Below are positions 1-19,496 of a DNA stretch of 40,147 nt, one piece after another. A program made the position numbers and the translations under genes. Origin of the DNA: a virus (taxonomy: Duplodnaviria; Heunggongvirae; Uroviricota; Caudoviricetes); IMG/VR virus record IMGVR_UViG_2778261267_000001; one strand, 5' to 3'. The notes beneath the pieces are model-generated. The model made no database searches and had not been told where the DNA came from. It was given only the letters and a program-made list of their open reading frames with translations. The number at the start of each line of letters is the position of its first letter. Position 1 is the first letter of the stretch.

Positions 1-1251
1 GTGCTTACCGATACAAAATTAAAAAACCTCAAGCCGCAGGATAAACTGTACAAGGTCTCCGATCGTGACGGGCTGTATGTAGCTGTGCTTACGTCAGGTA
101 CGGTCTCGTTTCGCTACGACTACCGTATCAACGGTCGCCGCGAAACACTGGTAATTGGGCAGTATGGGCGTGACGGTATCAGCCTGGCAGAAGCGCGAGA
201 AGAACTGATTGTTGCAAAGAAGCTGCTTAAAGCAGGCCAGTCACCGGCTGCGGCTAAACGTGACGGTATCAAAAAGATCCGTGGTGCCGAGACGTTTGCG
301 GTACATACCGACAGTTATATGAAACACGTCATCTTGGCTGACAGTACCCGCGCAATGAAGCAGGCGGTGATCGACCGTGACATACTTCCGGTTCTTGGCA
401 ACAAAATGATGGCTGAAATTACCACATCGATGGTTCGTGATTTGTGTGACCGGATTGTCGAACGCGGTGGCCGTGCAACAGCAGTACAGGCCAGGGAGAT
501 CATCAGCAGCGTATACCGTCACGCCAATGACCGTGGTCATGGTTTGTTTAATCCTGCGGCTGACATTAAACCTTCGTCTATCGCCATATTTAAACCACGA
601 GAGCGAACACTGACACCAGAAGAAATTGGCCTGTTCTTCCGCACGCTGGATGCCATTGGTGCTATGGGCACTATGAAAATGGCTTTAAAGCTGGTGCTTA
701 TCACTATGGCTCGTAAAGGCGAATTCACCAATGCAACGTGGGATGAAATAGATTTTAAAAAATGGACATGGACAATTCCTTCAGACCGCATGAAGGGAAG
801 CCGGGCGCACGTTATTTACCTGCCTAAACAGGCACAGGATATATTGGTCTGGTTGCAGATGTGCGCTGGTGGAAGTGAATATCTGGTTCCTGGTCGTTAC
901 AATTTCCGTAAGCCATTATCTAATGCCGCTCTGAACTCTCTGATCGACAGAACGGTGAAAATAATAAATGAAGATGGTGAGCATATTCAGGACTTCACTG
1001 TACATGATATGCGCCGTACAGCCAGTACGTTGTTGCATGAGGCTGGTTATCCTTCAGACTGGATTGAAAAGGCTCTGGCACATGAGCAGAAAGGTGTGCG
1101 CGCCGTATATAACAAAGCGGAATACGCCAGACAGCGCGCCTACATGTTGCAGCAGTGGGCCGATATGATTGATTCCTGGATTAACGGGGAGCATACGGAT
1201 CTGATTCCGTTCTCCCCGTCGAAGTTTGAGAAGTGGATGGCGGGGGAATAA
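1..1251 (+). CDS. int: Phage integrase, tyrosine recombinase (P4/CP4-57-like with N-terminal arm-binding domain)
   Basis: 416-aa ORF with GTG start at position 1. N-terminal region resembles the arm-type DNA-binding domain of tRNA-targeting integrases; C-terminal region has an HxxR-like catalytic segment (HDMRRTASTLL). Confidence 0.88.
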   Translation: MLTDTKLKNLKPQDKLYKVSDRDGLYVAVLTSGTVSFRYDYRINGRRETLVIGQYGRDGISLAEAREELIVAKKLLKAGQSPAAAKRDGIKKIRGAETFAVHTDSYMKHVILADSTRAMKQAVIDRDILPVLGNKMMAEITTSMVRDLCDRIVERGGRATAVQAREIISSVYRHANDRGHGLFNPAADIKPSSIAIFKPRERTLTPEEIGLFFRTLDAIGAMGTMKMALKLVLITMARKGEFTNATWDEIDFKKWTWTIPSDRMKGSRAHVIYLPKQAQDILVWLQMCAGGSEYLVPGRYNFRKPLSNAALNSLIDRTVKIINEDGEHIQDFTVHDMRRTASTLLHEAGYPSDWIEKALAHEQKGVRAVYNKAEYARQRAYMLQQWADMIDSWINGEHTDLIPFSPSKFEKWMAGE

Positions 1252-1254
1252 CGT

Positions 1255-1449
1255 TTAATTATTCTGCTGATTTTCTTCCATCTCGGCTTCTGCTTCCAGT
1301 GATTCAATTTTGTTTTCGAATATTGCTGACAGCATTGCAAATTCAGCATCAGTGACAGCGGGAATTGGAACAAACCTGATCCCGCTGTGTGCAAGCATGT
1401 TTGCAGTTTCAAGGCATTTCCTTAAATCTGCTGGTGATGTCCTGTTCAT
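1255..1449 (-). CDS. Hypothetical small acidic protein (64 aa), convergent with int
   Basis: ORF only; distal gene of the leftward operon, overlaps the methylase gene end by 4 nt. No recognisable motif. Confidence 0.4.
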   Translation of the reverse strand: MNRTSPADLRKCLETANMLAHSGIRFVPIPAVTDAEFAMLSAIFENKIESLEAEAEMEENQQNN

Positions 1450-2108
1450 GCTGCACGCTCCCGCCCCTGGTTGTCTGTTGGTGACAGCGGAGAATTGCTG
1501 AATGCATTTGTTAATCCGCCAATATCCAACGCGTATCCGGGGTGTAGTTGCACTGCCGGGTCTTCACACTGATTACCCCAAACATCGAAACCATGAGACG
1601 TCTGGCGGGCGAACAGTTCAATGCGAGAAACATCGCCTAACAATTGCACAAGTTTTTCACGAACGATATCTGGTTTTCTTGAGTGCTCAAGCCGCGGTGC
1701 GGTAAATGACTGAACGATCCCTGCATTAATGCGCGTAGGTAGTTTTCCCTTTACTGCAAACAGGCAATCTTCACTATTGGCGCGAGTCATGTGTCCCATA
1801 CCCATAACCAGTTTATCTGGTTGTCGACTACCACATTTTATCCACGTGAAGCCCTTCATGGTCATCAGACGGAATCCCCAGGCTTCAACAACTTTTAGTG
1901 CTTCGAGTGGTTGTGTTGGCACCCACCACATGGCCAACAGACAGTTTTCATCGGCCAAATCCCACACAGGAAGGCGGCAGATATCCAGCACACTCATAAC
2001 CGGATATTTAAAACCGGCACCGCGATTACCATCTGCGGCTTTGTCCCGGTATACCCAGGGTGGATCTGCATAGATTAGTGTGTATTTCTTAGTCATAAAC
2101 CACCCCAC
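1446..2108 (-). CDS. MT-A70 family DNA N6-adenine methyltransferase
   Basis: 220-aa ORF with the catalytic DPPW motif (YADPPWVY) near the N-terminus, typical of MT-A70/Dam-like phage methylases. Confidence 0.85.
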   Translation of the reverse strand: MGWFMTKKYTLIYADPPWVYRDKAADGNRGAGFKYPVMSVLDICRLPVWDLADENCLLAMWWVPTQPLEALKVVEAWGFRLMTMKGFTWIKCGSRQPDKLVMGMGHMTRANSEDCLFAVKGKLPTRINAGIVQSFTAPRLEHSRKPDIVREKLVQLLGDVSRIELFARQTSHGFDVWGNQCEDPAVQLHPGYALDIGGLTNAFSNSPLSPTDNQGRERAA

Positions 2109-2388
2109 AACATCCTATGCCGCTATAGTCGCCACGGCGAAGGCCGTTACCTTTTGTGATACATTGGTCCCTTCGAACCGCGATCCTTGCACGCTCAACA
2201 TCACCAGAAGCAACATCCATACGCTGAAGCCAAAGGTGGGCGGCAATGCGGAACTGCCCTTTTTTCTCTCTTTCAATCGCGCGTTTTTCGATCTCTATCG
2301 CCGCAGGAGTAACGGCGACAATCTTTGACGGACTGCGCATTGAAACCTTATTCATGTGATATTTTTCAAGTCGGCTTAACTTTCTCAC
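2089..2388 (-). CDS. Hypothetical phage protein (99 aa)
   Basis: ORF in operon context, 20-nt overlap with the methylase start. No recognised motif. Confidence 0.45.
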   Translation of the reverse strand: MRKLSRLEKYHMNKVSMRSPSKIVAVTPAAIEIEKRAIEREKKGQFRIAAHLWLQRMDVASGDVERARIAVRRDQCITKGNGLRRGDYSGIGCCGVVYD

Positions 2389-2497
2389 TTAATCCAACCC
2401 TCTCTGAAAATTAATGCCAGCAGATAAAGCCATGCTGAAACAGAGGCCAGGAATAAGTACCATCCTGACCATTTGCTCCAGTGCCTTAGCAGCACAC

Positions 2498-2746
2498 TCA
2501 TGCAGCGTTGCTCACAGGACGATATACACGTTGCTGAACAGGAGGCTTTTTACCCTGGAACTCTGCCGGGCTTGCTGCCTGACGTTCATCAAGCCAACGC
2601 TCAACTTCGTCACGGTTCCATGCGCAGCGTTTGTCAGTGATATACCAGCGTTTAGGAAATTCACCTGCGCGCTCCATACGGTCGATAGTGCTCCATGACA
2701 GTGGCACCACCGCCAGGAGTTCCTTCTTACCTAATGCACCTTTCAT
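2498..2746 (-). CDS. AlpA-family HTH regulator / excisionase-like protein
   Basis: 82-aa ORF; the segment LLAVVPLSWSTIDRMERAGEFPKRWYITDKRCAWNRDEVERWL matches the AlpA/phage-excisionase winged-HTH pattern. Confidence 0.7.
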   Translation of the reverse strand: MKGALGKKELLAVVPLSWSTIDRMERAGEFPKRWYITDKRCAWNRDEVERWLDERQAASPAEFQGKKPPVQQRVYRPVSNAA

Positions 2747-2795
2747 AAATACCTCTCTTGGTTGCAGTGCGGCGCGCGTGGCGCCGCGGTGGTGG

Positions 2796-3677
2796 TTACA
2801 TAGATGTTTCGTTTAATTCTTCCCGACGAACGCTGTAAACGTCGGTGGCTTTTGCCAGCAGTTCGTCATCATCTGAAAGTTTTTGTGCAATATATTTGTA
2901 AGCCTTATCCAGTTCGGAGATAGTGCTGTAATTCATCGCTGCGCTGGTAAAGGCCATCAGCATTTCTTCTGGATCACGGCTATCCGCTTTACGCGTTTGC
3001 TCATCAGGCTTTTTCACTGGTTTAGCGTTGATCAGACTGTTCATTCCCGCAGCAGTAGTTGTTTGCGGAGTAATGTCTCGCTCAACGCGCGGTGCCGTTT
3101 CCTGTAATTCGTCTGGGGTGTAAACACCGAGAAGTACATCAGGAGCGTGCAGGCGAGCCCATCGTTTCGTGCAAAGATAGGCAAGCTGCTGGCGCGGATC
3201 CTGTTCCCATAATGGAGAATTACGCACTCCGGCTTGCGCCATACTGATGGTAAGCTCACGGGGTTCTGCTTCTCCTTTAAGAATTGCTGACACAGTTACC
3301 GTCAGATTCGGTGATTTATCTGTTTTGCCGTTAACATTCGACCAGTCACCGCTCCAGCGATAATTCAGGCGTGTCGCCAGCAGGCTGGAAGAGGATACGA
3401 CCGCGTTTACCAACTGTGCTTCGTAGCCTAACGTTCCGTTTACCACATGCGTTTTCTGCGCCACGGCGAAAGGGTTCATTCCCCACTGTGCCGCCTGCAT
3501 GGTCACCGCCAGGCAATCGGCAGGTTTGCCTTCAAGATGTCTCGGTACAGTCGCTTTGCTTTGTGACATCAACTCAGCGAAACGCACCAGTTGATTCATG
3601 CCCTCGGGGCTGAAGATTGCCGCAGCAGTGCCTACAGTTGCGCCTGGTTGTGATGTGATTGCGATATCATTGCTCAT
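2796..3677 (-). CDS. RecT-like single-strand annealing protein
   Basis: 293-aa ORF directly downstream of and overlapping the exonuclease gene (classic RecE/RecT pairing). Family call is from sequence character and size, not from a search. Confidence 0.7.
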   Translation of the reverse strand: MSNDIAITSQPGATVGTAAAIFSPEGMNQLVRFAELMSQSKATVPRHLEGKPADCLAVTMQAAQWGMNPFAVAQKTHVVNGTLGYEAQLVNAVVSSSSLLATRLNYRWSGDWSNVNGKTDKSPNLTVTVSAILKGEAEPRELTISMAQAGVRNSPLWEQDPRQQLAYLCTKRWARLHAPDVLLGVYTPDELQETAPRVERDITPQTTTAAGMNSLINAKPVKKPDEQTRKADSRDPEEMLMAFTSAAMNYSTISELDKAYKYIAQKLSDDDELLAKATDVYSVRREELNETSM

Positions 3678-4495
3678 ACGTACATATCCTGTTTACGTGC
3701 CCAGTCAGGGCGTTTAATAATTTCCACTCCGCCCCACTCATCGTTGATGCGGCATTCGTGATAGGTATTCAGATCCCGGCGGAACAGAGCGTGCCCGGCA
3801 TCGACATCCGGCGCATCCAGCTCGAACACGCGTACCGGATAACGACCACAATCAATGCTTTCGCTCACGGCAAGAAAGAAAAAACCATGCGGCTGACCAG
3901 TAATCCTCATTGCGCCTTCGCGGTACATTGCGTCCTGCACGTGGTAGCGGAATTCCTCTATGTGGCGTGCAAAACGGTCCATATCTGCAACCTTTTTCAC
4001 GTCGACGATCACGTTGTGCTCGTTCAGCCATTTGTCTGGACGAATGCGGCACAACTCACCAGTCTCTTCATCGTTCCAGTACATTGATGCTTCGCAGTAA
4101 CCAGGTGCTTCCAGCATCCAGCGTGCCGCCGGGTGAGCCATTGCGCTATCACGCATCAGCTCCAGTTTCCGCCACTGCTCGGCATCAAGTACCGTAATCC
4201 CCATATCCGCCACATCACGAAGAAATGCCTCTTCGTCAGCTTTACCTTGTTTCGTCCGACGATCGAATTTCGGTGAAACAATGAAGCGTTTGTCGAACTC
4301 TCCAGGCTCCAGAAGCAGACAGTGCAATGCGGTTCCCATATCCAGTGCCGACTTTTTCTCTTCGTCTTCTGGTGCTGCCTGAACCCATTTAAGAAGCGCC
4401 GGATTCTTGGCAACCATGTCCAGTTGCGACTTACTCACGCCGTCACCGGCGTGGTAGTCTTTGTTGCTGATGTTGAAATAAATTCCCGGTTTCAT
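3674..4495 (-). CDS. RecE-C-terminal-like PD-(D/E)XK exonuclease (exodeoxyribonuclease VIII-like)
   Basis: 273-aa ORF with N-terminal YFNISNKDYHAG segment and a central D...E.K-type motif (IVDVKK), as in DUF3799/RecE-like phage exonucleases; paired with the RecT-like gene. Confidence 0.7.
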   Translation of the reverse strand: MKPGIYFNISNKDYHAGDGVSKSQLDMVAKNPALLKWVQAAPEDEEKKSALDMGTALHCLLLEPGEFDKRFIVSPKFDRRTKQGKADEEAFLRDVADMGITVLDAEQWRKLELMRDSAMAHPAARWMLEAPGYCEASMYWNDEETGELCRIRPDKWLNEHNVIVDVKKVADMDRFARHIEEFRYHVQDAMYREGAMRITGQPHGFFFLAVSESIDCGRYPVRVFELDAPDVDAGHALFRRDLNTYHECRINDEWGGVEIIKRPDWARKQDMYV

Positions 4496-4791
4496 GCCGC
4501 ATCCCTCTGCCCATCAAGCTGATCAGCCAGATCCCAGCGGGCGATAATTGCCATTGCCTCTCGCCGATAGGCATCCATCAGTTCTTCGAACTCAGGGCTG
4601 TCTTTAGCAGCCTCCAGCACTTCCTGACGAACGCCTTTGCCTGTTACAACGTCGAAAGTTGAGGACAGTTGATGAAGTCGGATGCTCTCAATCAGTTCAA
4701 CTTGTCGGTCATATAGCTGTTCTGACAGGCGGTAGTCCTTGTCGAATGCCAGCATGATTTTTTGAAGATTTTTCTGCTGATTAACGTTCAT
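4492..4791 (-). CDS. Hypothetical early protein (99 aa from the MNVNQQ start)
   Basis: ORF with a GGGAGGG Shine-Dalgarno 6 nt upstream of the ATG at 4791; the track's longer start at 4806 lacks an RBS. Start is translationally coupled to the stop of the upstream 50-aa ORF. Confidence 0.5.
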   Translation of the reverse strand: MNVNQQKNLQKIMLAFDKDYRLSEQLYDRQVELIESIRLHQLSSTFDVVTGKGVRQEVLEAAKDSPEFEELMDAYRREAMAIIARWDLADQLDGQRDAA

Positions 4792-4793
4792 TA

Positions 4794-4946
4794 TCAGCCC
4801 TCCCATATCTCGTTATCGTTGGCCACATCGCGAGCTTCTTTGCTGACGAAAGCCCACTTAATGCCTTCCTGTAAGGTGCGGAACTTCCAGCTCATGAATC
4901 CGCATGCAGTAACGCAGTACCAACCGTTGATGATTTTCCACTGCAT
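4794..4946 (-). CDS. Hypothetical 50-aa protein, first gene of the leftward early operon
   Basis: ORF below the track's size cut-off, read by hand (MQWKIINGWYCVTACGFMSWKF...). GAGG RBS about 10 nt upstream; immediately downstream of two operator-like palindromes. Confidence 0.4.
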   Translation of the reverse strand: MQWKIINGWYCVTACGFMSWKFRTLQEGIKWAFVSKEARDVANDNEIWEG

Positions 4947-4965
4947 AATTTGTTACCTCGGTCTG

Positions 4966-5042
4966 TTACCGTTGAGGTAATGATTATGCGTATCTGGTTT
5001 GATGTCAATAGATATGAGTTAAAAAAATTACCCATAAGGTAA
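4966..5042. promoter_or_regulatory. Leftward early promoter/operator region (OL-like) with two perfect TTACC-N5-GGTAA palindromes
   Basis: Perfect palindromes at 4966-4980 (TTACCGTTGAGGTAA) and 5028-5042 (TTACCCATAAGGTAA), plus a TTACC half-site at 4953-4957. Located between the repressor terminator and the first leftward gene. Confidence 0.6.
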
Positions 5043-5052
5043 TCTTGCTGAC

Positions 5053-5078
5053 AATAAAAAAGCCGCCATGAGGCGGCT
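5053..5078 (-). terminator. Intrinsic terminator downstream of the repressor gene
   Basis: Stem AGCCGCC / GGCGGCT (5061-5078) with a 4-nt loop, followed on the minus strand by a T-run (plus-strand AAAAA at 5056-5060). Confidence 0.7.
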
Positions 5079-5099
5079 TACTTACTGAAAAATATGATT

Positions 5100-5684
5100 T
5101 TATTGTTTGTTTTTTTCGTTCTGGCTGATGACAAATTCAATGTAACTTTCGATCTTTGCCTTCTCTGTTTCGGGTAACAATGCGTAGCGCGAGCGGTCAT
5201 AGTTGATAGTCGCAGGGTCGTGCGGGTGAATCAGTAATTCATAGCCGTGACGCCCGAATGCGGATGCAACATTCTCCAGGGTGGAAATGGAAACGCTGAC
5301 CTCATTGTTTAACAGGCGGCTGATTGTCACCTGGGCGACGCCGGATGCGCGGTGAAGTTTTCCCTGAGTTGAAAGGTCGCGGCTTTCGCTCATCCAGCGT
5401 TCCAGGTTGTGAGCCGCCAGCTGACCAATGTCGCTTGGGCCGACAGGCTGAAAACCTTCCTGAGAAAGCGAGCGATCGATATCAAGCCAGTTACGGGGTT
5501 TATTGGCGGCAGCTTCAATTTTTCGCGCAACCTGGTCGCCGATAACCTTCTTGCCAAGAGCCCAGCGGTTTACCAGATTTGCCTGAGTTCCAAGTTTTTC
5601 TGCCATCCGCGTCTGAACACCATTGAATTCACGGTCGATCAAGTCGTTGAGATTTTGCCTGCGGACGTCCTGGATACTTTTCAT
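5100..5684 (-). CDS. CI-like phage repressor (HTH DNA-binding protein, no obvious peptidase domain)
   Basis: 194-aa ORF divergent from a cro-like gene; HTH-like segments (MAEKLGTQANLVNRW, VAQVTISRLLNNE). Operator-like palindromes lie on both sides of the gene. Confidence 0.7.
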   Translation of the reverse strand: MKSIQDVRRQNLNDLIDREFNGVQTRMAEKLGTQANLVNRWALGKKVIGDQVARKIEAAANKPRNWLDIDRSLSQEGFQPVGPSDIGQLAAHNLERWMSESRDLSTQGKLHRASGVAQVTISRLLNNEVSVSISTLENVASAFGRHGYELLIHPHDPATINYDRSRYALLPETEKAKIESYIEFVISQNEKNKQ

Positions 5685-5739
5685 TTTCTGGAAAATCGCC
5701 TCATATATGAATCAGTAGATGATTCAATTTAAAGCAATA

Positions 5740-5802
5740 TTACCCAACAGGTAAATGCACCCCATAGGTAACTATCCTTGATTTTTGTTACCTTATGGGT
5801 GA
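5740..5802. promoter_or_regulatory. Divergent immunity promoter/operator region (OR-like) with three tandem operator-like sites
   Basis: Perfect TTACCCAACAGGTAA at 5740-5754, imperfect GCACCCCATAGGTAA at 5756-5770 and TTACCTTATGGGTGA at 5788-5802. A candidate rightward promoter (-35 TTGTTA 5786-5791, -10 TATTAT 5808-5813) overlaps the third site. Confidence 0.65.
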
Positions 5803-5838
5803 ATATTTATTATCTGAAATAAATATCAGGCAATAGCT

Positions 5839-6069
5839 ATGAGCGATAACGGACATTTCGATTTCAAAAAGCACTGGCTTGCACTTACTCCGGATGAGCG
5901 TGAAGCCTTCGCACAGGAAGCCGGAACGACGAGTCACTATATCCAGACTCACTTAACAGGTAAGCGCAAAATGCCAGGTAAGGTATTGATGAATGGGCTT
6001 TTTAAAGCCTGTAAATCAAGACAATGGTTGCGCTCAAAAGCAGAACTGGCATACTTCTTCTACTCATGA
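5839..6069 (+). CDS. Cro-like small regulator (76 aa)
   Basis: Small ORF divergent from the repressor, immediately downstream of the operator cluster and followed by a terminator; call is by position and size. Confidence 0.55.
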   Translation: MSDNGHFDFKKHWLALTPDEREAFAQEAGTTSHYIQTHLTGKRKMPGKVLMNGLFKACKSRQWLRSKAELAYFFYS

Positions 6070-6090
6070 TATCCAGCCACAACCCTCTGT

Positions 6091-6116
6091 AGACCGCCAT
6101 CCGGCGGTCTTTTTAT
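6091..6116 (+). terminator. Intrinsic terminator after the cro-like gene (tR1-like position)
   Basis: Stem AGACCGCC / GGCGGTCT with loop ATCC (6091-6110) followed by TTTTT. Confidence 0.7.
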
Positions 6117-6219
6117 ATCTATTCGCACCTCAAAGGTAATAAAAAACCAAATTTGGTTGATCTTTTTTTTGTGTCAGCACAAAATAACCGTAATCCCAAT
6201 ACTAATAACAGGGCTTACC

Positions 6220-6420
6220 ATGGAAATCATTACACGTATTGATGCCGCAAAGCGCGGACTTAAACGCTACTACACCGGAAAAACATGTAAGCACGGACAT
6301 GACAGTGAACGCTGGGTTTACAACGGACACTGTGTTGAGTGCACCATGGAATCAAACCGTCGCATCAGGGCAGAGATTAAGCAGATCATGATTAATTCCT
6401 CCCCACAACACTCAAGCTGA
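6220..6420 (+). CDS. Hypothetical small Cys/His-rich protein (cII position)
   Basis: 66 aa from the ATG at 6220; the track's upstream extension from 6157 is hydrophobic junk. Contains CKHGH...HCVEC spacing suggestive of a zinc ribbon. Confidence 0.45.
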   Translation: MEIITRIDAAKRGLKRYYTGKTCKHGHDSERWVYNGHCVECTMESNRRIRAEIKQIMINSSPQHSS

Positions 6421-6435
6421 TAGCGGAGATTAATC

Positions 6436-7251
6436 ATGAGCAGACATGCAACAGATTGGGCCTGGGAGACAGATCCAGGCAGCTCATCATTAAAGCTCAT
6501 ACTGCTCTCGATGGCTGACAGAGCCGATGAATATAACCTCTGCTACCCCAGCATAGAACGCCTAGTTAAAGACACTTGCCTGAATAAAAAAACCGTGCAG
6601 GCCGGACTTATATCGCTCATGAAAATGGGGCTTATTTCAGATACCGGAGAGAGAAAGGGAGCGACGAAAAGAGTGCGGGTTTTCTCTCTTAATATAACCA
6701 AAAACGGGAACATTAAAGGCAGCCGGGAAGGGGGTAATGAACCCAAAAACGGTAATGTTACCGAAAACGGGAATATACCCAAAAACGGGATGCTGAATGA
6801 TCCCAAAAACGGGATGTTGAATGATCCCAAAAACGGGATCCAGAACCAGTCATATAACCAGTCATTTAATCAAGAGAGGGAGAGCAGGACAAAAAACGGG
6901 GATTCTGTGCATCATGACCCAGGCGCAAACAACGCCGTGATGAATAACTTTGTTCCTCCTGGTGGGCCAGGGCAATTAGGCAAATTTGTCATGCATGAAC
7001 AATGGCAGCCATCAGATGACTTTCTTCGGAAAAGCTCATTGCAGGGAATCTACCTGGATAGTCTGCCAACGGCACAGGAACTTGCAGAGTTCAGAATTTA
7101 CTGGATGGCTGAGGGTAAGGCATACCATCAGGCACAGTGGGAGCAGAAGCTGGCAAGGCGGCTGCAGATTAGCAGACAGAAGCAATCAACATTAACTGAT
7201 AACAACGTTCCGCACTGGAACAGCCCTGAAGCATGGGAGGATTTCTTGTGA
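6436..7251 (+). CDS. Replication initiator (lambda O-like role) with an internal repeat-encoding segment
   Basis: 271-aa ORF directly upstream of and overlapping the P-like gene. Middle of the gene carries tandem DNA repeats (iteron-like) encoding PKNGMLND repeats. Confidence 0.75.
   Translation: MSRHATDWAWETDPGSSSLKLILLSMADRADEYNLCYPSIERLVKDTCLNKKTVQAGLISLMKMGLISDTGERKGATKRVRVFSLNITKNGNIKGSREGGNEPKNGNVTENGNIPKNGMLNDPKNGMLNDPKNGIQNQSYNQSFNQERESRTKNGDSVHHDPGANNAVMNNFVPPGGPGQLGKFVMHEQWQPSDDFLRKSSLQGIYLDSLPTAQELAEFRIYWMAEGKAYHQAQWEQKLARRLQISRQKQSTLTDNNVPHWNSPEAWEDFL
6696..6845. repeat. Iteron-like tandem repeats inside the O-like gene (candidate origin of replication)
   Basis: Five to six copies of CCAAAAACGG(G/T)A, including two adjacent 24-bp units (TCCCAAAAACGGGATG[C/T]TGAATGA at 6778-6801 and 6802-6825). 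Confidence 0.7.
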
Positions 7252-8033
7252 ACAACGTTTTTACCGCAATACAAAACCGTGACGGAGAAGCCCTTTCTCG
7301 CATGTCAGGTTATGAGCATCAGTACACCAACAATGACAACGTAGTGAACATGTCAGCAGAGAGGCTTGTTGATGCCCTTTTCAAACAGTTGAAACAACTG
7401 TTTCCGGCGGCAGTGGTAACCAACCTGAAGACGCCAGAGCAGGAAGTTGCTGCAAAACAGCAGTGGATTGCTGCGTTTGCTGAAGGAGGGATCCGAACCC
7501 GTGAACAGGTTTCTGCTGGTATGCGCCACGCCCGCGCCAGTGAATCTCCGTTCTGGCCGTCGCCAGGGCAATTTATCAAGTGGTGCAAAGACAGCAAGAT
7601 GGTTCTTGGCGTCACCATTGACGATGTGATGGCGGAGTTTCACCGGTACAGCAAGGAAAAAAGTTTATATCCTGGCGGTCCCGAAAGATTCCCGTGGCGA
7701 CATCCGGTTATGTACTGGGTCGTATGTGATACACGCCGTGCAATGTATCAGCGCCAGCTTAGCGAGATTGAGGTTGAGAAACACGCGCGCAGGCTGCTCG
7801 ATGATTGGGCGAAAAAGGTGGCTTCCGGACAGCAGATACCCGATCCGGTGATCAGCATACAGGCAAAGCCAGAACCCATGAGTACGCCTCCGGACACAGG
7901 GAGAGACGTTTACCACCCGCCAGGGCGAAGTTTCGGGTGCATGCCTAACGCCGCCACCCTGGGGGGAATAACACCGGCGCAGTGGCTGATGGAGGAATAC
8001 AGGCGGGGAAAGGCGGCAGGATTTATCAAGTAA
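7233..8033 (+). CDS. Replication protein P-like helicase loader
   Basis: Clear resemblance to lambda P as I recall it (e.g. AGMRHARASESPFWPSPGQFIKWC versus lambda GMRVARRQNRPFLPSPGQFVAWC). Start may instead be the GTG at 7248 overlapping the O-like stop. Confidence 0.85.
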   Translation: MGGFLVNNVFTAIQNRDGEALSRMSGYEHQYTNNDNVVNMSAERLVDALFKQLKQLFPAAVVTNLKTPEQEVAAKQQWIAAFAEGGIRTREQVSAGMRHARASESPFWPSPGQFIKWCKDSKMVLGVTIDDVMAEFHRYSKEKSLYPGGPERFPWRHPVMYWVVCDTRRAMYQRQLSEIEVEKHARRLLDDWAKKVASGQQIPDPVISIQAKPEPMSTPPDTGRDVYHPPGRSFGCMPNAATLGGITPAQWLMEEYRRGKAAGFIK

Positions 8034-8038
8034 TACCA

Positions 8039-8058
8039 GCGCGATAGCGCATTTTTTT
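8039..8058 (+). terminator. Weak terminator-like hairpin after the P-like gene
   Basis: GCGC-GATA-GCGC stem-loop followed by seven T residues; the stem is only 4 bp, so strength is uncertain. Confidence 0.35.
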
Positions 8059-8070
8059 ACGCCTACATGA

Positions 8071-8147
8071 TTACCTTGCGGGTAATAAAATGTTCTAATT
8101 TCTATTGATTTCATGTCTTATGTGGTTTTTAATTACCTCAGAGGTAA
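8071..8147 (+). promoter_or_regulatory. Regulated internal promoter region: two perfect TTACC-N5-GGTAA palindromes flanking a TATGTGGTT element
   Basis: TTACCTTGCGGGTAA at 8071-8085, TATGTGGTT at 8119-8127, and TTACCTCAGAGGTAA at 8133-8147 (a perfect 15-bp palindrome overlapping the RBS of the 8151 gene). Confidence 0.6.
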
Positions 8148-8150
8148 ATC

Positions 8151-8495
8151 ATGAGAAAACAGATACAGGCTCTTGGTCGACTCAAAACAGGCCAGATGAA
8201 CAAAACAGAATCTGCGTATTGCCAGCACCTTGAGCTGCGTAAACGTGCAGGAGAAATCGTCTGGTATCGATTTGAGGGTATCAAGCTTCGGTTAGCTGAC
8301 AACACGTTCTATACGCCCGATTTTGCTGTGATGCTCGCCACCGGCGAGATGGAACTGCACGAAGTGAAAGGTTTCTGGACCGACGACGCCAGGGTGAAAA
8401 CCAAAGTCGCCGCAGATCAGTATCCGTTCCGAATCATTGGGGTAACGGTTAAACCAAAGAAAGCAGGTGGTGGCTGGAACATCGAAGAGTTCTGA
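8151..8495 (+). CDS. DUF1064-like phage protein (putative PD-(D/E)XK-type nuclease / resolvase-like)
   Basis: 114-aa ORF with a D...ELHEVKG segment (D-x(n)-E-x-K) typical of small phage nuclease-fold proteins. Confidence 0.5.
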   Translation: MRKQIQALGRLKTGQMNKTESAYCQHLELRKRAGEIVWYRFEGIKLRLADNTFYTPDFAVMLATGEMELHEVKGFWTDDARVKTKVAADQYPFRIIGVTVKPKKAGGGWNIEEF

Positions 8496-8556
8496 ATCGA
8501 CGATCTTTTTAGTTATCAATGTAATCAATAAGTTATGTGGATAAGCGAGGGTAAAG

Positions 8557-9201
8557 ATGGAAATTAATATCAAAGGATTAGTTGCCGCCGGGCATGAGAT
8601 GGCTTCGGAACTGAAAGCTGAATGTGGTGCCGTTGATATGCGTAGTGTGGCAAAGCTGCTCAGCGATTTGGCAACGCAACTGGAAGTGCAACTGGCGCGT
8701 GCTAATGCGCTGGCCGAAGACCAGCAGAAAGCGATTGAGTCAATTAAGCAGGCTGATTCGGCCGTTAAGTTGGCGCACGAGAAGTTTTCAGCGCTGGCGG
8801 CGGAGAATGAGGCGTTGAAGTCGAACCTGATTTACTGGGGCGGCGAAGATTCAGGGCCTGTCAGAAGCCCGCTTGATTACGCCCATGAAGCCGGGCTGGA
8901 ATCTGGAGAGGAGTTTGAGATGCAAGTGGCAGCCAGAATGCCGAACCTGACTTATCGCGTTGTGTCCAGTTCCCGGTTCAAAACAGAAATAGAACTGATT
9001 GGCGGATTATTGCCGGAAACCCCAGCCACCGATGCTTTCCTGGCTGAAGTGCGGGCGCAGGCGTTTAATGACCTTTGCTCGGCGTTCGTTAAACACGCGA
9101 ATTTCGCGGGAATGGATGATGGTGAGCTAGTGAGGCTTAAATATGCGACGGACGCCCTGCTGCATTGTGCGGAACAGCTTCGCAAAGGAGGCAACCAGTG
9201 A
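8557..9201 (+). CDS. Hypothetical coiled-coil phage protein (214 aa)
   Basis: ORF with RBS (GAGGG) and a heptad-rich, alanine/glutamate-rich N-terminal half. Confidence 0.55.
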   Translation: MEINIKGLVAAGHEMASELKAECGAVDMRSVAKLLSDLATQLEVQLARANALAEDQQKAIESIKQADSAVKLAHEKFSALAAENEALKSNLIYWGGEDSGPVRSPLDYAHEAGLESGEEFEMQVAARMPNLTYRVVSSSRFKTEIELIGGLLPETPATDAFLAEVRAQAFNDLCSAFVKHANFAGMDDGELVRLKYATDALLHCAEQLRKGGNQ

Positions 9202-9743
9202 GTGTAACGGTTGAAAAGATTGATGTGTTGTCATTCGTTATAACCGGTGCAGAGAGACTAGATCCGATTCGAGTGATGATTGAAAACTACGAACCTGGTA
9301 AGGGAAGAATCACCATCACCTGCTACGGAAAAGCGTGGACTGCGGCTTGGTTTGCTATGGGCGGTGATGATGTGCAGACGTTCATTAAGCGAGTCAGCAA
9401 CGACTATCTAATCGACAATTTCGACCCTCAACTGCTAAGCACGGTCGACGATGACAACGATGCAAATCTGCTTTTCGTGAAGTCAGAAATCATAAAGTTA
9501 CGAAGAGAGAGAGAAATCGACGCCGTACTGGCTCGCGAAATGTGGGACGAGGCGGAAAACGCCGATGACGTAAAAGAAAGCTGCTGCTGTTTCGGCGTCG
9601 GTAACAAACTACTGAATCTCTTTGGTGATGATCCGTGGTGTGCCAACTGGCCAACGATACCAAACCCGAAATACCAGTATCTGGAACGCGTACTTAATGC
9701 AGTGAGAGACGGCCTTAAGCAAATAGAGAAGGTGGAACCATGA
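9198..9743 (+). CDS. Hypothetical phage protein (181 aa from the GTG start)
   Basis: AAAGGAGG RBS at 9185-9192 precedes the GTG at 9198, which overlaps the upstream stop; the track's longer start at 9165 is rejected. Confidence 0.55.
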   Translation: MSVTVEKIDVLSFVITGAERLDPIRVMIENYEPGKGRITITCYGKAWTAAWFAMGGDDVQTFIKRVSNDYLIDNFDPQLLSTVDDDNDANLLFVKSEIIKLRREREIDAVLAREMWDEAENADDVKESCCCFGVGNKLLNLFGDDPWCANWPTIPNPKYQYLERVLNAVRDGLKQIEKVEP

Positions 9744-10039
9744 CTGTATGTCTTATTGATAAACGTCGACGTGGGCAACAAATACCATCTGTTGAAATTC
9801 CGAATCACACATGGTTTTGCGTACTTGATATCGATGGTATGGATACGTTGATCGACACTCGTCATTACTGCGATACCGCAACAGCTACTCCTGCAAAAGC
9901 AAAGAAAATGGCTGCTCTGATAGAAAACTGGACTCCACCTGATGGTTGGTGCAATGGGAATGATCGAGATTGGCACGAAAAAATGAAGGGCTACATCTGC
10001 GATTTCTTACGTAAATGCAACGGATTCAGGGTGATGTGA
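9740..10039 (+). CDS. Hypothetical phage protein (99 aa)
   Basis: ORF with 4-nt start/stop overlap with the upstream gene; no motif recognised. Confidence 0.5.
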   Translation: MTVCLIDKRRRGQQIPSVEIPNHTWFCVLDIDGMDTLIDTRHYCDTATATPAKAKKMAALIENWTPPDGWCNGNDRDWHEKMKGYICDFLRKCNGFRVM

Positions 10040-10040
10040 C

Positions 10041-10757
10041 ATGAGCAAGATTGACTATCAGGCACTGCGTGAGGTGGCAGAGCGTGCAATTCCGGCAATG
10101 GAACGCCTGTTAATGTTGCCAGTTGATGATGATTTGTTAACTGAACAGGAACTTAAGGATTACGGTGTGGATATTGATGCGCTCAATGCCTTCAAATTTC
10201 TGACCGGACCAGAAACCGTGCTGGCGCTGCTGGATGAACGGGAAAGAAACCAGCAATACATCAAACGCCGTGACCAGGAGAACGAGGAAATTGCGCTAAC
10301 GGTAGGGAAGCTGCGTGTTGAGCTGGAAGCCGCAGAGAACAACCTTATTGATAGTGAGTGCCATGTTGCTGAACTGGAAGAAGCGCTACGCGATAAGCAG
10401 GCGTTACCTGAAGCATCAGAGAAGCACATAGCAGAACTGGAAACAAAAGCGAACCAGCAAACCAGAATAAGCGATAAGGGGCTGACAAAGCTGATTGCCG
10501 ATGCTGACAAAATGCTGGGTATGCGTTCGCCGGTTATAGGCAGCGAGTGGTGGACGCTTTTACGGCAGTTCCTGATTGAACTTCAGGATCGCCGCAGAAA
10601 CAGCATTTCTGAATCTGGAATCCGTGCTGAAACCCTGAATGATTTAATCCGACATATTGACAGAAACCTGGATATTGACGCGATGAAATCGCCGTTTGAA
10701 CTGTCATCTGAAATTGTGGATTACGTTAATAGGCAACTGCACAAGGATAATTCGTAA
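10041..10757 (+). CDS. Hypothetical coiled-coil protein (Ea22-like character)
   Basis: 238-aa ORF with a long central coiled-coil-like segment (LRVELEAAENNLIDSECHVAELEEALRDKQ). Confidence 0.55.
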   Translation: MSKIDYQALREVAERAIPAMERLLMLPVDDDLLTEQELKDYGVDIDALNAFKFLTGPETVLALLDERERNQQYIKRRDQENEEIALTVGKLRVELEAAENNLIDSECHVAELEEALRDKQALPEASEKHIAELETKANQQTRISDKGLTKLIADADKMLGMRSPVIGSEWWTLLRQFLIELQDRRRNSISESGIRAETLNDLIRHIDRNLDIDAMKSPFELSSEIVDYVNRQLHKDNS

Positions 10758-11119
10758 TGCAGGTGGCATTTGTTGGCCTGTTACCGCATCCGATCCGCCT
10801 TTGGGCGGATATGTCACTCATAAAAACGCATTTTTTTACTACTGATGGCGGCATTCCGGCACCAAAGCGCCGTCATACCGGTATTGCAGCGGCACGACGA
10901 GCAGCAAAGAGACGCAGGAGAGCAAAGCGATGAAAAACCGTAAAGCAAAGATTCTGTTAGTTCGTAGAAACGCTCCTGGCGTCTGGTAGTGGGTGAGACT
11001 CAGCAACCGACGGATGGGGTTGATGAAATATTACGGGATGATGGATTGTGGTTTTTGCAAAAAGCCCAGCGCGGCGCAAAACCGCTGGAAAAACCACTTG
11101 CGCACTAAAGGAGAGTGAT

Positions 11120-11635
11120 ATGGCGTTAACACACCGCGAACTCTGTCAGATTGCGTATAAGTTCCTTAAGCGCAACGGGTTCAAGGTTTGTTTTCATGAC
11201 CGCTTTATAGCTGTAACCAGTACCGGAGAACAGCCAGATGCTATTGGATTCAGAAATTCAGCATCATGCCTGATAGAGGCGAAGTGTTCTCGTGCTGACT
11301 TGTTGGCAGATAGAAAAAAGCGTTTTCGTAAAAATCCATCTCTTGGAATGGGCGACTGGCGATTCTTTATTAGTGAGCCGGGAATTATTTCAGTTGAGGA
11401 TTTACCACCTGGCTGGGGATTACTTCACGTTGTTAACGGAAGAGTACGGAAAGTACATGGGTGGCCCAAGGGTAATTGCTGTTGGGGTAATCCTGACGAT
11501 AAGCCATTTACTGGAAATAAGCAGGTTGAATGCGATTACATGTTATCTGCATTAAGGCGCATGGAGTTGAGAGGGCACCTTAATGAAATATATGACGGTG
11601 TAATTGTTAATAAGAAAGAAGGAAACGCGGCATGA
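11120..11635 (+). CDS. MmcB-like PD-(D/E)XK nuclease-fold protein
   Basis: 171 aa from the ATG at 11120 with AAGGAGAG RBS. Contains a PD...E.K arrangement (QPDAIGF ... LIEAKCSRADLLAD) followed by WRFFISEP, as in MmcB/DUF1052-type proteins. Local AT enrichment. Confidence 0.55.
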   Translation: MALTHRELCQIAYKFLKRNGFKVCFHDRFIAVTSTGEQPDAIGFRNSASCLIEAKCSRADLLADRKKRFRKNPSLGMGDWRFFISEPGIISVEDLPPGWGLLHVVNGRVRKVHGWPKGNCCWGNPDDKPFTGNKQVECDYMLSALRRMELRGHLNEIYDGVIVNKKEGNAA

Positions 11636-12450
11636 TCACTATTACCAATAAGAAACAGTATCCCAGCGAGCAATATCTTAATGAGCTGATCACCAACATA
11701 GAGTTTGCTGCAAGGGCACCAGTTGAAGTCGTGAGAGCAATGGCAGCAGAGCTACAGAAGCGGCGCGAAGCTGATAGCGCAGAACCAGTTGCTTATATTT
11801 TCAAACATCCGGCCGGGAAATTATTCTGGGCTTTAACGGATGAAAGTAATAAAGAGCAAGCGGACGTTATTCCTGTTTATGCCGCCCCTCCAGTGCCAGT
11901 AGTACCTGAAGAAAAACCAATGCCTAACCCTCTTAAAATGTACGCGGTCGATGCTGTTGCCGCTATTGCAGAGGTGAGAGGCTGGAATGCCTGCCGCGCC
12001 GCCATGCTTCAGGGTAGCCAACCTGTAAGCCAAACTTACAACTTGCCAGAATTAATCGAAGGCATGGAAGTTTCCATTGATGTAAGCACTTGTGATGCTG
12101 ATTTAGGTAATCGCTATTTCGGCACCGTCACCGAGGCGTTAGAACTTGATACAGCCAAGAATGGCTACATCCTCCTGATTCAGGACGCAGAGCCAAACTT
12201 CGATGTAAATGGCAACTCTCCGGTAACTCCGGATGGTTGGATAAGCTGTAGTGAGCGAATGCCGGAAGACACCAAAATGTTACTGGCATTTAGTCAAGGT
12301 GAAATCGTGGCCGCATATTGGAACTGGGTTGTAAATCCAATTGATTACAAAAAATATAGAGCTTTCACGTATTTATCAGGACATATCTTGGATGACGTAA
12401 CTCACTGGATGCCGCTACCGGAACCGCCGCAGGAGGTTAACCGTGGCTAA
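11632..12450 (+). CDS. DUF551-domain phage protein
   Basis: 272-aa ORF; C-terminal segment WISCSERMPE...THWMPLPEPP matches the DUF551 pattern common in enterobacterial prophages. Confidence 0.6.
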   Translation: MITITNKKQYPSEQYLNELITNIEFAARAPVEVVRAMAAELQKRREADSAEPVAYIFKHPAGKLFWALTDESNKEQADVIPVYAAPPVPVVPEEKPMPNPLKMYAVDAVAAIAEVRGWNACRAAMLQGSQPVSQTYNLPELIEGMEVSIDVSTCDADLGNRYFGTVTEALELDTAKNGYILLIQDAEPNFDVNGNSPVTPDGWISCSERMPEDTKMLLAFSQGEIVAAYWNWVVNPIDYKKYRAFTYLSGHILDDVTHWMPLPEPPQEVNRG

Positions 12451-12724
12451 CCTGCAACTTGCCGTCAAAGGTGAATACTTCGATGCCATGATTCGCAGAG
12501 AGAAAACGGAAGAGTATCGCCTGTGTAATGACTACTGGAATAAGCGAATTATGTTCCGGGAGTATGACCGCCTGATTATCACAAAGGGATATCCGAAGCG
12601 CGACGATTCCAGCCGCAGAATTGATGTTCCGTATGACGGATATGAAATCAAGACAATCACACATCCCCACTTCGGCGATAAACCGGTAAAGGTGTTCGCG
12701 ATAAAGGTGAATATTGATGGCTAA
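12443..12724 (+). CDS. ASCH-domain-like small protein
   Basis: 93-aa ORF with GTG start overlapping the upstream stop; N-terminal LQLAVKGEYFDAMIRREKTEEYR resembles ASCH-domain openings. Confidence 0.5.
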   Translation: MANLQLAVKGEYFDAMIRREKTEEYRLCNDYWNKRIMFREYDRLIITKGYPKRDDSSRRIDVPYDGYEIKTITHPHFGDKPVKVFAIKVNIDG

Positions 12725-13055
12725 ATCAGCAGCAGAGCGCAAAGCCGCTCAGAGAGCCAGACAAGCTGAATCCGGTGTGCGTAAGCTGGAAATTGTGCTT
12801 GATGCTCAGGAAATTGAAATGCTGGAGCGTAACTGTGCCACGCGTCGCCCCGGGCGCGCGCCTTACGAATTTGGTGAGTATATAGCGTTACTGATCCGCC
12901 AGGATGATGCACGCGTGCGCGGGCGTATAAAATCGATCAGCAGAAAACGTTGCGGTAAGTGCGGCGAGAGAGTTCCTGTGAATTCATGCCCGTGTAATGG
13001 TGACTCGCAATGCTGGGTGACCAAAGGCTGGCATGAAACGAAATTAATAGTGTGA
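12717..13055 (+). CDS. Hypothetical protein with Cys-rich C-terminus (candidate zinc-binding regulator)
   Basis: 112 aa from ATG 12717; C-terminal CGKCGERVPVNSCPCNGDSQCW cysteine cluster. Confidence 0.5.
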   Translation: MAKSAAERKAAQRARQAESGVRKLEIVLDAQEIEMLERNCATRRPGRAPYEFGEYIALLIRQDDARVRGRIKSISRKRCGKCGERVPVNSCPCNGDSQCWVTKGWHETKLIV

Positions 13056-13072
13056 CATGTCACGAAGGTGTT

Positions 13073-13285
13073 ATGCCAAAAATACGCTACGACCTTGAAG
13101 ATATGAGAGATAACTCAGCAAATTTTCCGAAAGAGGTTAAATTTCTCATGCATAAGTATGGTTGCGCCAGGAGGGATATAGTTATCGACAGTCAGCACCC
13201 TTGCGGCGAGGATGTAATTTTCATTCGCGGTAAATGGGAAGGGTATCTTGACGAGAGTTTTTACGATGAATTTGATGGACTTTGA
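13073..13285 (+). CDS. Hypothetical small protein (70 aa)
   Basis: ORF with GAAGGTG RBS before the ATG at 13073; last gene before a strong terminator. Confidence 0.45.
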   Translation: MPKIRYDLEDMRDNSANFPKEVKFLMHKYGCARRDIVIDSQHPCGEDVIFIRGKWEGYLDESFYDEFDGL

Positions 13286-13290
13286 ATACT

Positions 13291-13317
13291 GCCGCCAACT
13301 ATGGCGGCTTTATTTTG
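13291..13317 (+). terminator. Intrinsic terminator immediately upstream of the small terminase gene
   Basis: GCCGCC-AACTAT-GGCGGC hairpin followed by TTTATTTT; lies inside the track's N-terminal extension of the terS ORF. Confidence 0.7.
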
Positions 13318-13359
13318 CATGGTACTATTACCACAACGGTAACTATTACCACGGTGGTT

Positions 13360-13956
13360 ATGATGCCTGCTGAACCTAAAACCTATAAACGCAAATCAAC
13401 GCAATTTAAGCCACTAACAGCAATGCAGGAGGCTTATTGCCAGTCATACATCAAAACGCCTGAAAACCAGACTCAGGCAGCGATTAACGCAGGATTCTCC
13501 CCAAATACAGCGGCAGTTAAAGCCAGTGTCATGATGCGCGATGAACGCATTCAAAAACGGATTGCCGAGTTGATGGAGGAGCGCAACAAACGAATGCGCG
13601 TCAGTGCTGATTACGTTCTCATGCGCCTGGTGGAGATCGACCAGATGGACGTGATCGACATCCTCAACGACGATGGGAGCCTTAAACCAATCCGTGAGTG
13701 GCCGAAAATCTGGCGCACTACGCTTAGCGGCTTTGATCTGTCATCGACCATCATGAACATGAACGAGGATTCGATAGAGACAATCCTCAAAAAAATTAAA
13801 TGGCCTGACAAGGTGAAGAACCTTGAGCTGATTGGTAAGCATGTTGATGTCAACGCGTTCAAAGAACGCCTGGATGTTAATGTGAATGTGACAATTGCTG
13901 ATCGCATAGCGGCAGCCAGGAAGAGACTGAAAGAACGTCAGGATGGCAATCAGTGA
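13360..13956 (+). CDS. Terminase small subunit
   Basis: 198 aa from the MMPAEPK start (RBS GGTGG); helix-rich small protein immediately upstream of and overlapping the large terminase. Confidence 0.7.
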   Translation: MMPAEPKTYKRKSTQFKPLTAMQEAYCQSYIKTPENQTQAAINAGFSPNTAAVKASVMMRDERIQKRIAELMEERNKRMRVSADYVLMRLVEIDQMDVIDILNDDGSLKPIREWPKIWRTTLSGFDLSSTIMNMNEDSIETILKKIKWPDKVKNLELIGKHVDVNAFKERLDVNVNVTIADRIAAARKRLKERQDGNQ

Positions 13957-15428: not shown

Positions 15429-15475
15429 TCCGCTTTAGGGGATAATGTCGTTGATATCCTCTGATGAGGATAAAA

Positions 15476-15505
15476 CAAAGCCAGCTCATAGGCTGGCTGT
15501 TTGTG
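15476..15505. terminator. Bidirectional terminator between the terminase operon and the convergent moron gene
   Basis: AGCCAGC-TCATAG-GCTGGCT hairpin flanked by A-rich sequence on one side and T-rich on the other. Confidence 0.65.
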
Positions 15506-15518
15506 ATATGTCACGGTG

Positions 15519-15890: not shown

Positions 15891-15905
15891 AGTCTAATCT
15901 CACCT

Positions 15906-15930
15906 TAAAAAAATGCCCGGCGAACCGGGC
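15906..15930 (-). terminator. Intrinsic terminator downstream of the tRNA gene (minus strand)
   Basis: GCCCGG-CGAA-CCGGGC hairpin followed on the minus strand by a run of seven T (plus-strand A-run at 15907-15913). Confidence 0.6.
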
Positions 15931-16093
15931 GAACTGGAAGCAATGAGTTATGCCTTCCGTGGTTGTACTGGTTTACAGCATGAAGTCATCGCAATGGCGT
16001 CCTGCTGTAAAAAGGGCGGTGATGGTTTACCTTGAAGGACTATCACCGCCAAGCCCCTGGAACTTCTGGCATCACGGTCCTTAGGCGTGATTC

Positions 16094-16569: not shown

Positions 16570-16596
16570 AATTTAATTGCGTACGGAGTCATTGAT

Positions 16597-16803: not shown

Positions 16804-16817
16804 CCGGAGTCATTGAA

Positions 16818-19488: not shown

Positions 19489-19496
19489 GAGAGGAA

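Follow-up and report, generated by a model that had tools for sequence, protein, structure and literature searches.

Among the closest described systems is the Rep-Ant switch of Salmonella phage SPC32H, in which the repressor Rep reportedly remains uncleaved in the SOS response and the antirepressor gene ant is said to be repressed by LexA (work ascribed to Kim & Ryu, J Virol, 2013, and to Kim et al., PNAS, 2016). According to two secondary sources, SPC32H Rep binds palindromic DNA as a tetramer in which each DNA-binding pair comes from different dimers, and Ant, itself a tetramer, binds the C-terminal domain of Rep and breaks the assembly (PMC9638917; PMC9986798); the dimeric form of Rep is described in the former as binding DNA weakly (PMC9638917). 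The RefSeq record of the related Salmonella phage epsilon15 (NC_004775; Kropinski et al., 2007) lists seven "protein_bind: repressor" features, possibly predictions, all of which have the motif TTACC-N5-GGTAA. In phage ZX5, free phage disappeared when the repressor was overexpressed, and the endolysin and holin transcripts fell by over 99.9%; the authors call the mechanism a mystery, and the protein they tested was a Bro-N protein, not the Ant homologue (PMC9782041). For the operators of the phiV10 lineage we found no description in the searchable literature.

The DNA analysed here, a stretch of 40,147 bp that we call the window, carries from left to right an integrase, leftward recombination genes, a repressor, rightward replication genes, terminase, virion genes, a tailspike, an O-antigen acetylase, and lysis genes. 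This is the gene order of phiV10 and epsilon15 (genus Uetakevirus), from which it follows that the window represents a single complete prophage of the phiV10/epsilon15 type. Over the 2.1 kb around the switch, identity to Escherichia phage phiV10 and related phages is 98%, and of 5,426 complete E. coli genomes 563 contain the immunity region, pathogenic strains such as O157 among them. Prophages of the phiV10 type are common, and members of the group change the O-antigen. We consider it highly probable that the 154 bp between the divergent repressor gene and a small rightward gene serve as rightward operator region (OR) in a prophage of the phiV10 type with an SPC32H/epsilon15-type Rep-Ant switch. 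The result refines an already described system and does not define a new one. The features at the switch are as follows.

5060-5079, minus strand: intrinsic terminator after rep, also annotated in phiV10
5100-5684, minus strand: rep, 194-aa immunity repressor (phiV10 p40 / epsilon15 gp38 / SPC32H Rep family)
5685-5838: divergent region, 154 bp, between the 194-aa and 76-aa open reading frames
5740-5754: operator O1, TTACCCAACAGGTAA, TTACC-N5-GGTAA with both 5-bp arms perfect, found by pattern search
5757-5771: operator O2, GCACCCCATAGGTAA, two mismatches, found by pattern search
5778-5783, plus strand: TTGATT, unchanged in five lineages, candidate -35 element for rightward transcription
5785-5813, plus strand: rightward promoter candidate of the original prediction, TTGTTA (5785-5790), 17 bp, TATTAT (5808-5813), 9 of 12 consensus matches
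5788-5802: operator O3, TTACCTTATGGGTGA, one mismatch, inside the core of the rightward promoter
5839-6069, plus strand: first gene of the rightward transcript, 76 aa (phiV10 p41 / epsilon15 gp39), candidate Cro analogue
6091-6110, plus strand: intrinsic terminator after the 76-aa gene, also annotated in phiV10

Homology identifies the 194-aa protein as the immunity repressor, the role in which it had first been cast. It shares 99.5% identity with the phiV10/ZX5 protein, the repressor with the overexpression phenotype mentioned above, and it is a full-length homologue of the crystallised SPC32H Rep (PDB 5D50_A; E=4.1e-42 over aa 1-190), with which it shares 41.8% identity by tblastn. Because this identity is only about 42%, the oligomeric state and the Ant sensitivity of the window's Rep are extrapolated from SPC32H. 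The protein consists of an N-terminal Cro/YdaS-type helix-turn-helix domain (a weak YdaS-type Pfam match at aa 21-61), a C-terminal HTH_3-like domain (Pfam HTH_3, aa 106-147), and a conserved C-terminal tail. NLVNRW, the presumed recognition helix, does not vary between lineages whose repressors are 43-78% identical overall, and in the tail (aa 160-189) 14 residues are invariant across lineages; the C-terminal domain would, in this type of switch, carry both the tetramer contacts and the surface for Ant. No LexA-like peptidase domain had been visible in the protein originally, and a search for a hidden S24 domain in Pfam, NCBIfam, PHROGs, and PDB sequences gave the same result, with helix-turn-helix signatures as the only matches in the first three.

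Three operator-like sites had been proposed for the divergent region, and pattern search, conservation, and polymorphism all uphold this proposal, with two corrections. The second site, placed at 5756-5770, lies one base further to the right, and the description of the first site as a perfect palindrome holds for its 5-bp arms and fails for its 5-bp centre, which is not symmetric. O1 and O2 are 17 bp apart, start to start, and O2 and O3 are separated by 30-31 bp; the 17-bp spacing is kept in epsilon15, SPC32H, and Klebsiella phage BUCT711. In shuffled sequences matches with at most two mismatches average 11.85 per 40,147 bp, which corresponds to about 0.045 per 154 bp, as compared with the three found (Poisson P ~1.5e-5). 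Relatives retrieved from IMG/VR with the repressor protein are all 99-100% identical and are thus unfit as a between-lineage footprint; we used them for polymorphism within the lineage and obtained diversity between lineages by tblastn of a phage collection. Among 80 such near-identical relatives, 6 of the 15 spacer positions within O1-O3 vary, as against none of the 30 half-site positions (P ~6e-4). The alignment of the divergent region from five repressor lineages (the window, Enterobacter phage Tyrion, epsilon15, SPC32H, and BUCT711) gives the same picture, in that the half-sites and TTGATT are invariant and the 5-bp centres and the flanks vary. O1 is perfect in all five lineages and O3 is imperfect in all five; O2 matches perfectly in three lineages but is degenerate in those of phiV10 and Tyrion. 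The idea of graded sites thus stands as regards the match to the consensus, and the pattern itself is conserved. Taken together, the comparisons indicate that selection acts on the three sites and that they resemble operators.

The third site had also been predicted to overlap the rightward promoter, and O3 does overlap the core of this promoter with either of two candidate -35 elements. The spacer between TTGTTA and TATTAT measures 17 bp and not 16 bp as first given. TTGTTA-17-TATTAT is the better consensus match in the window's lineage; TTGATT, which begins 6 bp after the end of O2, is at least as good a candidate for the -35 element and is better conserved. On the rep strand we found no convincing sigma-70 match that could represent a lambda-like repressor-maintenance promoter. 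The sole conserved candidate is weak, with TTACCT in the rep-proximal arm of O1 as -35 element, followed by 17 bp and TAAATT (5731-5726), and we assign it as rep's own promoter with low confidence. If it were real, this promoter would imply negative autoregulation of rep. A leftward promoter-like match at 6093-6066 was considered as an analogue of PRE and rejected, because three such hits were found and 3.0 are expected.

The same motif recurs throughout the prophage. TTACC-N5-GGTAA occurs in eight perfect copies in the window, compared with about 0.04 expected by chance, and all eight TTACC/GGTAA pairs have a spacing of exactly 5, with none at spacings of 0-4 or 6-14. Matches with at most two mismatches number 40, as against the 11.85 from shuffles. 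Five imperfect copies (starting at 5757, 5788, 6125, 13346, and 36943) together with the perfect ones form a set of 13 sites at operon starts, and O1-O3 belong to this set, which also covers leftward, replication-region, packaging, virion, tailspike/antirepressor, and lysis promoters. The members outside the divergent region are the following.

4966-5042, minus strand: leftward early promoter region, with the distal operator at 5028-5042, 19 bp, -35 TTGACA (5008-5003), 17 bp, and -10 AATCAT (4985-4980)
4966-4980: leftward proximal operator, its first base being the last base of the -10 AATCAT, 62 bp from the distal operator, start to start
6125-6139: degenerate operator, GCACCTCAAAGGTAA, between the terminator of the 76-aa gene and the next gene
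8071-8147, plus strand: second promoter, with an operator at 8071-8085, 19 bp, TTGATT (8105-8110), 17 bp, TTTAAT (8128-8133), and an operator at 8133-8147
13328-13360: operator pair, 13328-13342 perfect and 13346-13360 with one mismatch, 18 bp apart
16492-16506: single perfect operator upstream of the gp3-like/portal operon, a repressor site in the epsilon15 annotation
33433-33447: single perfect operator in the interval from which ant and the tailspike gene diverge, a repressor site in the epsilon15 annotation
36943-36957: operator variant, TCACCTTTGGGGTAA, within the spacer of a promoter-like element, TTATCA-18-TAGAAT, that precedes the holin/lysis operon

The leftward promoter and the promoter at 8071-8147, which directly precedes a DUF1064/resolvase-like gene, have an identical layout, with operators 62 bp apart and the last T of the -10 element opening the proximal operator. 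This arrangement of operator, 19 bp, -35, 17 bp, and -10 with its 62-bp operator spacing is kept in all five lineages. The degenerate operator at 6125 has counterparts in the same place in Tyrion (35365) and in the Klebsiella phage (6032). The pair at 13328 and 13346 lies between a terminator and the start codon of the small terminase gene (terS), directly before the latter; epsilon15 has the same pair, one site of which is annotated there as a repressor site. No promoter is recognisable at the terS pair. Genomes of epsilon15, SPC32H, Tyrion, and BUCT711 each contain 13-18 motif matches with at most one mismatch, as compared with 0.5-0.7 expected, in the same syntenic places. Operators overlap core promoter elements at the leftward, rightward, 8071-8147, and lysis promoters. 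At the sites 13328/13346, 16492, and 33433 we found no overlapping sigma-70 core promoter, and the single sites 16492 and 33433 are located ~50-65 bp upstream of the nearest -10-like element. Given these distances and the terS pair with no recognisable promoter, simple promoter occlusion does not explain all sites. A further repeat, TATGTGGTT, was tried as a second regulatory motif and set aside: it has three perfect copies, but with at most one mismatch it occurs 15 times as against 8.9 expected, and it is not conserved at the tailspike promoter of epsilon15.

We propose that Rep binds the 15-bp operators TTACC-N5-GGTAA through its N-terminal helix-turn-helix domain. With O3 inside the rightward promoter and O2 stopping 6 bp short of the conserved -35 candidate, Rep bound to these two sites would keep RNA polymerase off, and the 76-aa gene and the replication genes downstream of it would be silent. 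The leftward early promoter and the second early promoter would each be shut between their two operators 62 bp apart. Operators also mark the starts of the packaging, virion, tailspike/antirepressor, and lysis operons, so that a single protein may silence the whole prophage. Because Rep of this family reportedly forms a tetramer that has two DNA-binding pairs, each recurring pair of operators, whether 17-18 bp or 62 bp apart, is probably occupied by one Rep tetramer. The imperfection of O3 in every lineage suggests that this site needs help, and it would probably be filled cooperatively from the strong O1/O2 pair. We judge the chance to be about even that a tetramer holds operators two by two and reaches O3 in this cooperative manner.

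An alternative explanation is that the sites are Rep operators each of which acts alone by occlusion, without bridging or looping by a tetramer, and that the spacings of 17-18 and 62 bp simply follow from promoter geometry. The single sites at 16492, 33433, and 36943 fit this explanation, as does the tailspike region, where the half-site spacing is 50 bp and not 62, and at a distance of 17 bp O1 and O2 would face nearly opposite sides of the helix. However, the 62-bp spacing recurs with identical layout at two unrelated promoters and in five lineages, the consistently imperfect O3 suggests a site that depends on others, and a secondary source on SPC32H reports weak DNA binding by dimeric Rep (PMC9638917). 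We regard independent action of the operators as rather unlikely and retain the tetramer bound to operator pairs as the working model.

The palindromes might also be bound mainly by another regulator, such as the 76-aa protein, the gp49-like regulator before terS, or the PerC- or AlpA-like proteins, with Rep recognising another sequence. The 76-aa protein matches phrog_35 "transcriptional repressor" (E=8.7e-13) and has no Pfam match; a single-sequence AlphaFold (AF2) model (pLDDT 81.7) predicts a five-helix bundle, whose best PDB hits are the N-terminal domain of YdaS (TM 0.62), NGO0477, and the DNA-binding domain of the 434 repressor, at a Foldseek E of ~1. A sequence-profile search of the PDB gave a marginal match to an immunity repressor helix-turn-helix (E=0.44). 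From its position, the PHROG match, and the modelled helix-turn-helix fold, the protein is a plausible Cro analogue. Its segment AGTTSHYIQxHLT is invariant in all lineages, like the half-sites, and it might occupy the sites in place of Rep or in addition to it; the presence of the motif upstream of late operons would likewise fit activator sites. Yet the recognition helix of Rep is equally invariant, the sites cover the -10/+1 region or the spacer of early promoters, which is the geometry of repression, and the epsilon15 record assigns the sites to the repressor. Furthermore, neither the switch-region search nor the cross-lineage alignments of operator regions revealed a second repeated palindrome of comparable weight. 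We therefore judge another principal binder to be very unlikely, and continue with Rep as the protein that would occupy these operators.

The original prediction framed the region as a bistable CI/Cro switch and left the mechanism of induction open. The features that bear on induction are located far to the right of the switch.

33099-33356, minus strand: ant, 85-aa antirepressor (phiV10 p24 / epsilon15 gp19 / SPC32H Ant)
33376-33395: predicted LexA box, AACTGTATATTTATACAGTA, two mismatches from the 20-bp consensus, with its end 20 bp upstream of where ant begins

Ant is nearly identical over 84 residues to PDB 5D50_E, "Anti-repressor protein" (E=3.3e-47), and belongs to phrog_450. Its gene immediately precedes the tailspike gene and is encoded on the other strand, the position that ant also has in SPC32H; switches of this type have a repressor of about 195 aa and an Ant of about 86 aa. 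Within the box, CTGTATATTTATACAG (33378-33393) is the only CTGT-N8-ACAG in the window, and a LexA box at ant is kept in four other lineages. With a repressor that has no S24 domain and an Ant homologue encoded in the same window behind a near-consensus LexA box, the question of induction finds an answer, and the idea of an unknown induction route is corrected: DNA damage would most likely lead to cleavage of LexA and synthesis of Ant, which would bind the C-terminal part of Rep so that the uncleaved tetramer leaves the operators.

If the region were instead a lambda-type switch, a dimeric repressor and Cro would compete for the three operators with opposite orders of affinity, and induction would act directly on the repressor. 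The layout does agree with this, as divergent genes for a repressor and a small helix-turn-helix protein flank three graded sites, and the 76-aa protein not only has the 434-Cro/YdaS-like fold and the PHROG match, it is also weakly similar to the N-terminal domain of Rep (27% over 41 aa). This part of the earlier framing survives. What does not survive is the mechanism: Rep lacks the S24 domain; Ant and the LexA box are present; the Rep family is reported, in a secondary source, as a tetramer that is removed by Ant (PMC9638917); of the three sites the perfect one lies at the greatest distance from the rightward promoter; and the operators, 13 in all, reach late operons, unlike those of lambda. 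A CI/Cro switch of the lambda type is consequently highly improbable here, and the Rep-Ant switch remains the preferred interpretation. That the palindromes are chance or non-regulatory repeats, which the shortness of their 5-bp arms might suggest, is refuted by the motif statistics, the cross-lineage matches, and the within-lineage polymorphism, and its probability is negligible.

A broader interpretation can be offered only tentatively, and we consider it doubtful as a whole. All Uetakeviruses, from E. coli, Salmonella, Enterobacter, and Klebsiella hosts, may share one invariant half-site code in spite of repressors that are only ~42% identical, and immunity specificity, if there is any, might then be achieved through indirect readout of the 5-bp centre. 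This centre has an A+T content of 61-65% in the lineages of phiV10 and Tyrion, compared with 82-96% in the remaining ones. The tetramer would clamp early promoters between operators exactly 62 bp apart and fill the weak rightward operator only cooperatively, a logic inverted relative to lambda.

Testable predictions on how a switch with a tetrameric repressor is organised follow from the conserved pairs of operators 62 bp apart and from the consistently weak site on the rightward promoter. Applied to phiV10-type prophages, the SPC32H rule, under which the repressor is not cleaved and the SOS response works through a LexA-controlled antirepressor, would predict inducing drugs and host mutations, and the full list of operator sites could be used to engineer or to silence the prophage.

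In comparison with lambda, 434, and P22, the window has divergent genes for a repressor and a small helix-turn-helix protein, three tandem operators over the rightward promoter, and, ~700 bp away, another group of operators at the leftward promoter. The defining feature of the lambda type, an S24 autocleavage domain, is absent from its Rep, however, and the repressor of the window's family would be tetrameric and removed by an antirepressor, recognising 5-bp arms with a free 5-bp centre. The best site being the most distant from the rightward promoter is the opposite of lambda OR1, and operators are found at late operons too. The Gifsy and Fels-2 prophages, described by Lemire et al. in 2011, and coliphage 186 with its Tum protein reportedly combine a non-cleavable repressor with a small LexA-repressed antirepressor, encoded far from the immunity region, through which the SOS signal enters; operator sets that span the genome are, to our knowledge, not reported for these phages.

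The stoperators of mycobacteriophage L5 are asymmetric 13-mers, about 30 in number, that are oriented with transcription and act downstream of promoters on elongating polymerase. As in the window, gp71 of L5/L1 is one repressor with many intergenic sites throughout the genome (PMC1934351). The window differs in having 13 symmetric 15-mers, most of which overlap or flank promoters, with the terS pair behind a terminator and lacking a recognisable promoter, and this symmetry and promoter association indicate that its operators do not form a stoperator network of the L5 type.

The correspondence with epsilon15 is closer. Each of its seven annotated sites has one counterpart in the window, the places being the leftward promoter, terS, the gp3-like gene, the tailspike, and the post-replication promoter; the difference is that the three sites of the divergent region are present in epsilon15 but unannotated. 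SPC32H (PDB 5D50, 5D4Z) belongs to the same genus and has the same gene order, a full-length Rep homologue, a near-identical Ant, and a LexA box before ant. Predicted TTACC-N5-GGTAA sites occupy the same places in its genome, including three at OR with spacings of 17 and 30-31 bp. The two phages differ in that O2 is perfect in SPC32H and degenerate in the window, that the leftward promoter region has three predicted operators there and two in the window, and that the operator spacers are 88% A+T in SPC32H as compared with 65% in the window. Every defining feature of the SPC32H/epsilon15 Rep-Ant switch that can be checked in a sequence was found in the window.

The operators share the same arms, TTACC and GGTAA, in the window and in all four relatives, while the A+T content of the 5-bp centre between them varies with the repressor lineage. 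Taken over every operator site of the window and of the four related loci, the A+T fraction of the centre is low in Tyrion (0.61) and the window (0.65) and higher in epsilon15 (0.82), SPC32H (0.88) and the Klebsiella phage (0.96). Immunity specificity may be seated in the operator centre.

A conserved variant of the operator, TTACC-N5-GGTAT, precedes the integrase gene by about 50 bp in all four relatives; the matching position falls just beyond the left end of the window.

Variant sites upstream of the integrase gene
26882-26896, epsilon15 (L003)
26960-26974, SPC32H (L084)
28568-28582, Tyrion (L085)
12620-12634, Klebsiella phage (L086)

At the leftward promoter, a longer inverted repeat, TTACCTC-N15-GAGGTAA (4952-4980), encloses the proximal operator and supplies an additional TTACC half-site 14 bp to the left of that operator, an arrangement that Tyrion keeps. 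In epsilon15, SPC32H and the Klebsiella phage, a segment downstream of the proximal operator, missing from the window lineage, holds a third full operator. The leftward promoter with its flanking operators is also the top-scoring sigma-70-like match in positions 1-20000, the early half of the prophage, which is depleted in such matches (8, compared with 21.1 +/- 4.3 in shuffled sequences).

The gp3-like gene is preceded by a block of some 45 bp (CATATGTGGTTAAATTGGTAATAATTTAATTGCGTACGGAG, 16545-16590) that is nearly invariant among five phage lineages, whose hosts belong to four genera. All five agree at every position of a 30-bp core, and in this comparison the block is more conserved than the adjoining coding sequence. 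Further copies of the core element TATGTGGTT occur at 8119-8127 and 33479-33487, 48-58 bp downstream of the operators at 8071 (second early promoter) and 33433 (between the antirepressor gene ant and the tailspike gene). The block contains no sigma-70 -35 element. The block may represent an activator-dependent late promoter; alternatively, it may be an RNA leader.

In phiV10 (19646-20230 in locus L002), Tyrion and ZX5, a Bro-N "anti-repressor" gene adjoins ant, whereas the window has no such gene in the corresponding interval (32575-33099). The interval holds a small open reading frame, for which a Pfam search returned no match:

32771-33067, plus strand, 98-aa open reading frame

The ZX5 study assayed the product of the Bro-N gene rather than the homologue of the crystallized Ant (PMC9782041).

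Between the terminase and portal modules the window carries a tRNA gene, as does SPC32H:

16094-16170, minus strand, tRNA-Arg, anticodon TCT

The minus strand at 2796-4495 encodes a RecT-like protein (293 aa) and a PD-(D/E)XK exonuclease (273 aa) in two overlapping but separate open reading frames, whereas the phiV10 record annotates a single fused RecE-RecT protein; this probably reflects a frameshift or a difference in annotation. The gene for the DnaT-like replication initiator (6436-7251) contains 18-bp and 24-bp tandem repeats at 6733-6839, made up of CCCAAAAACGGGATGCTGAATGAT and related units, which encode a repeated PKNG peptide motif. By analogy with the lambda O gene, these repeats look like origin iterons.
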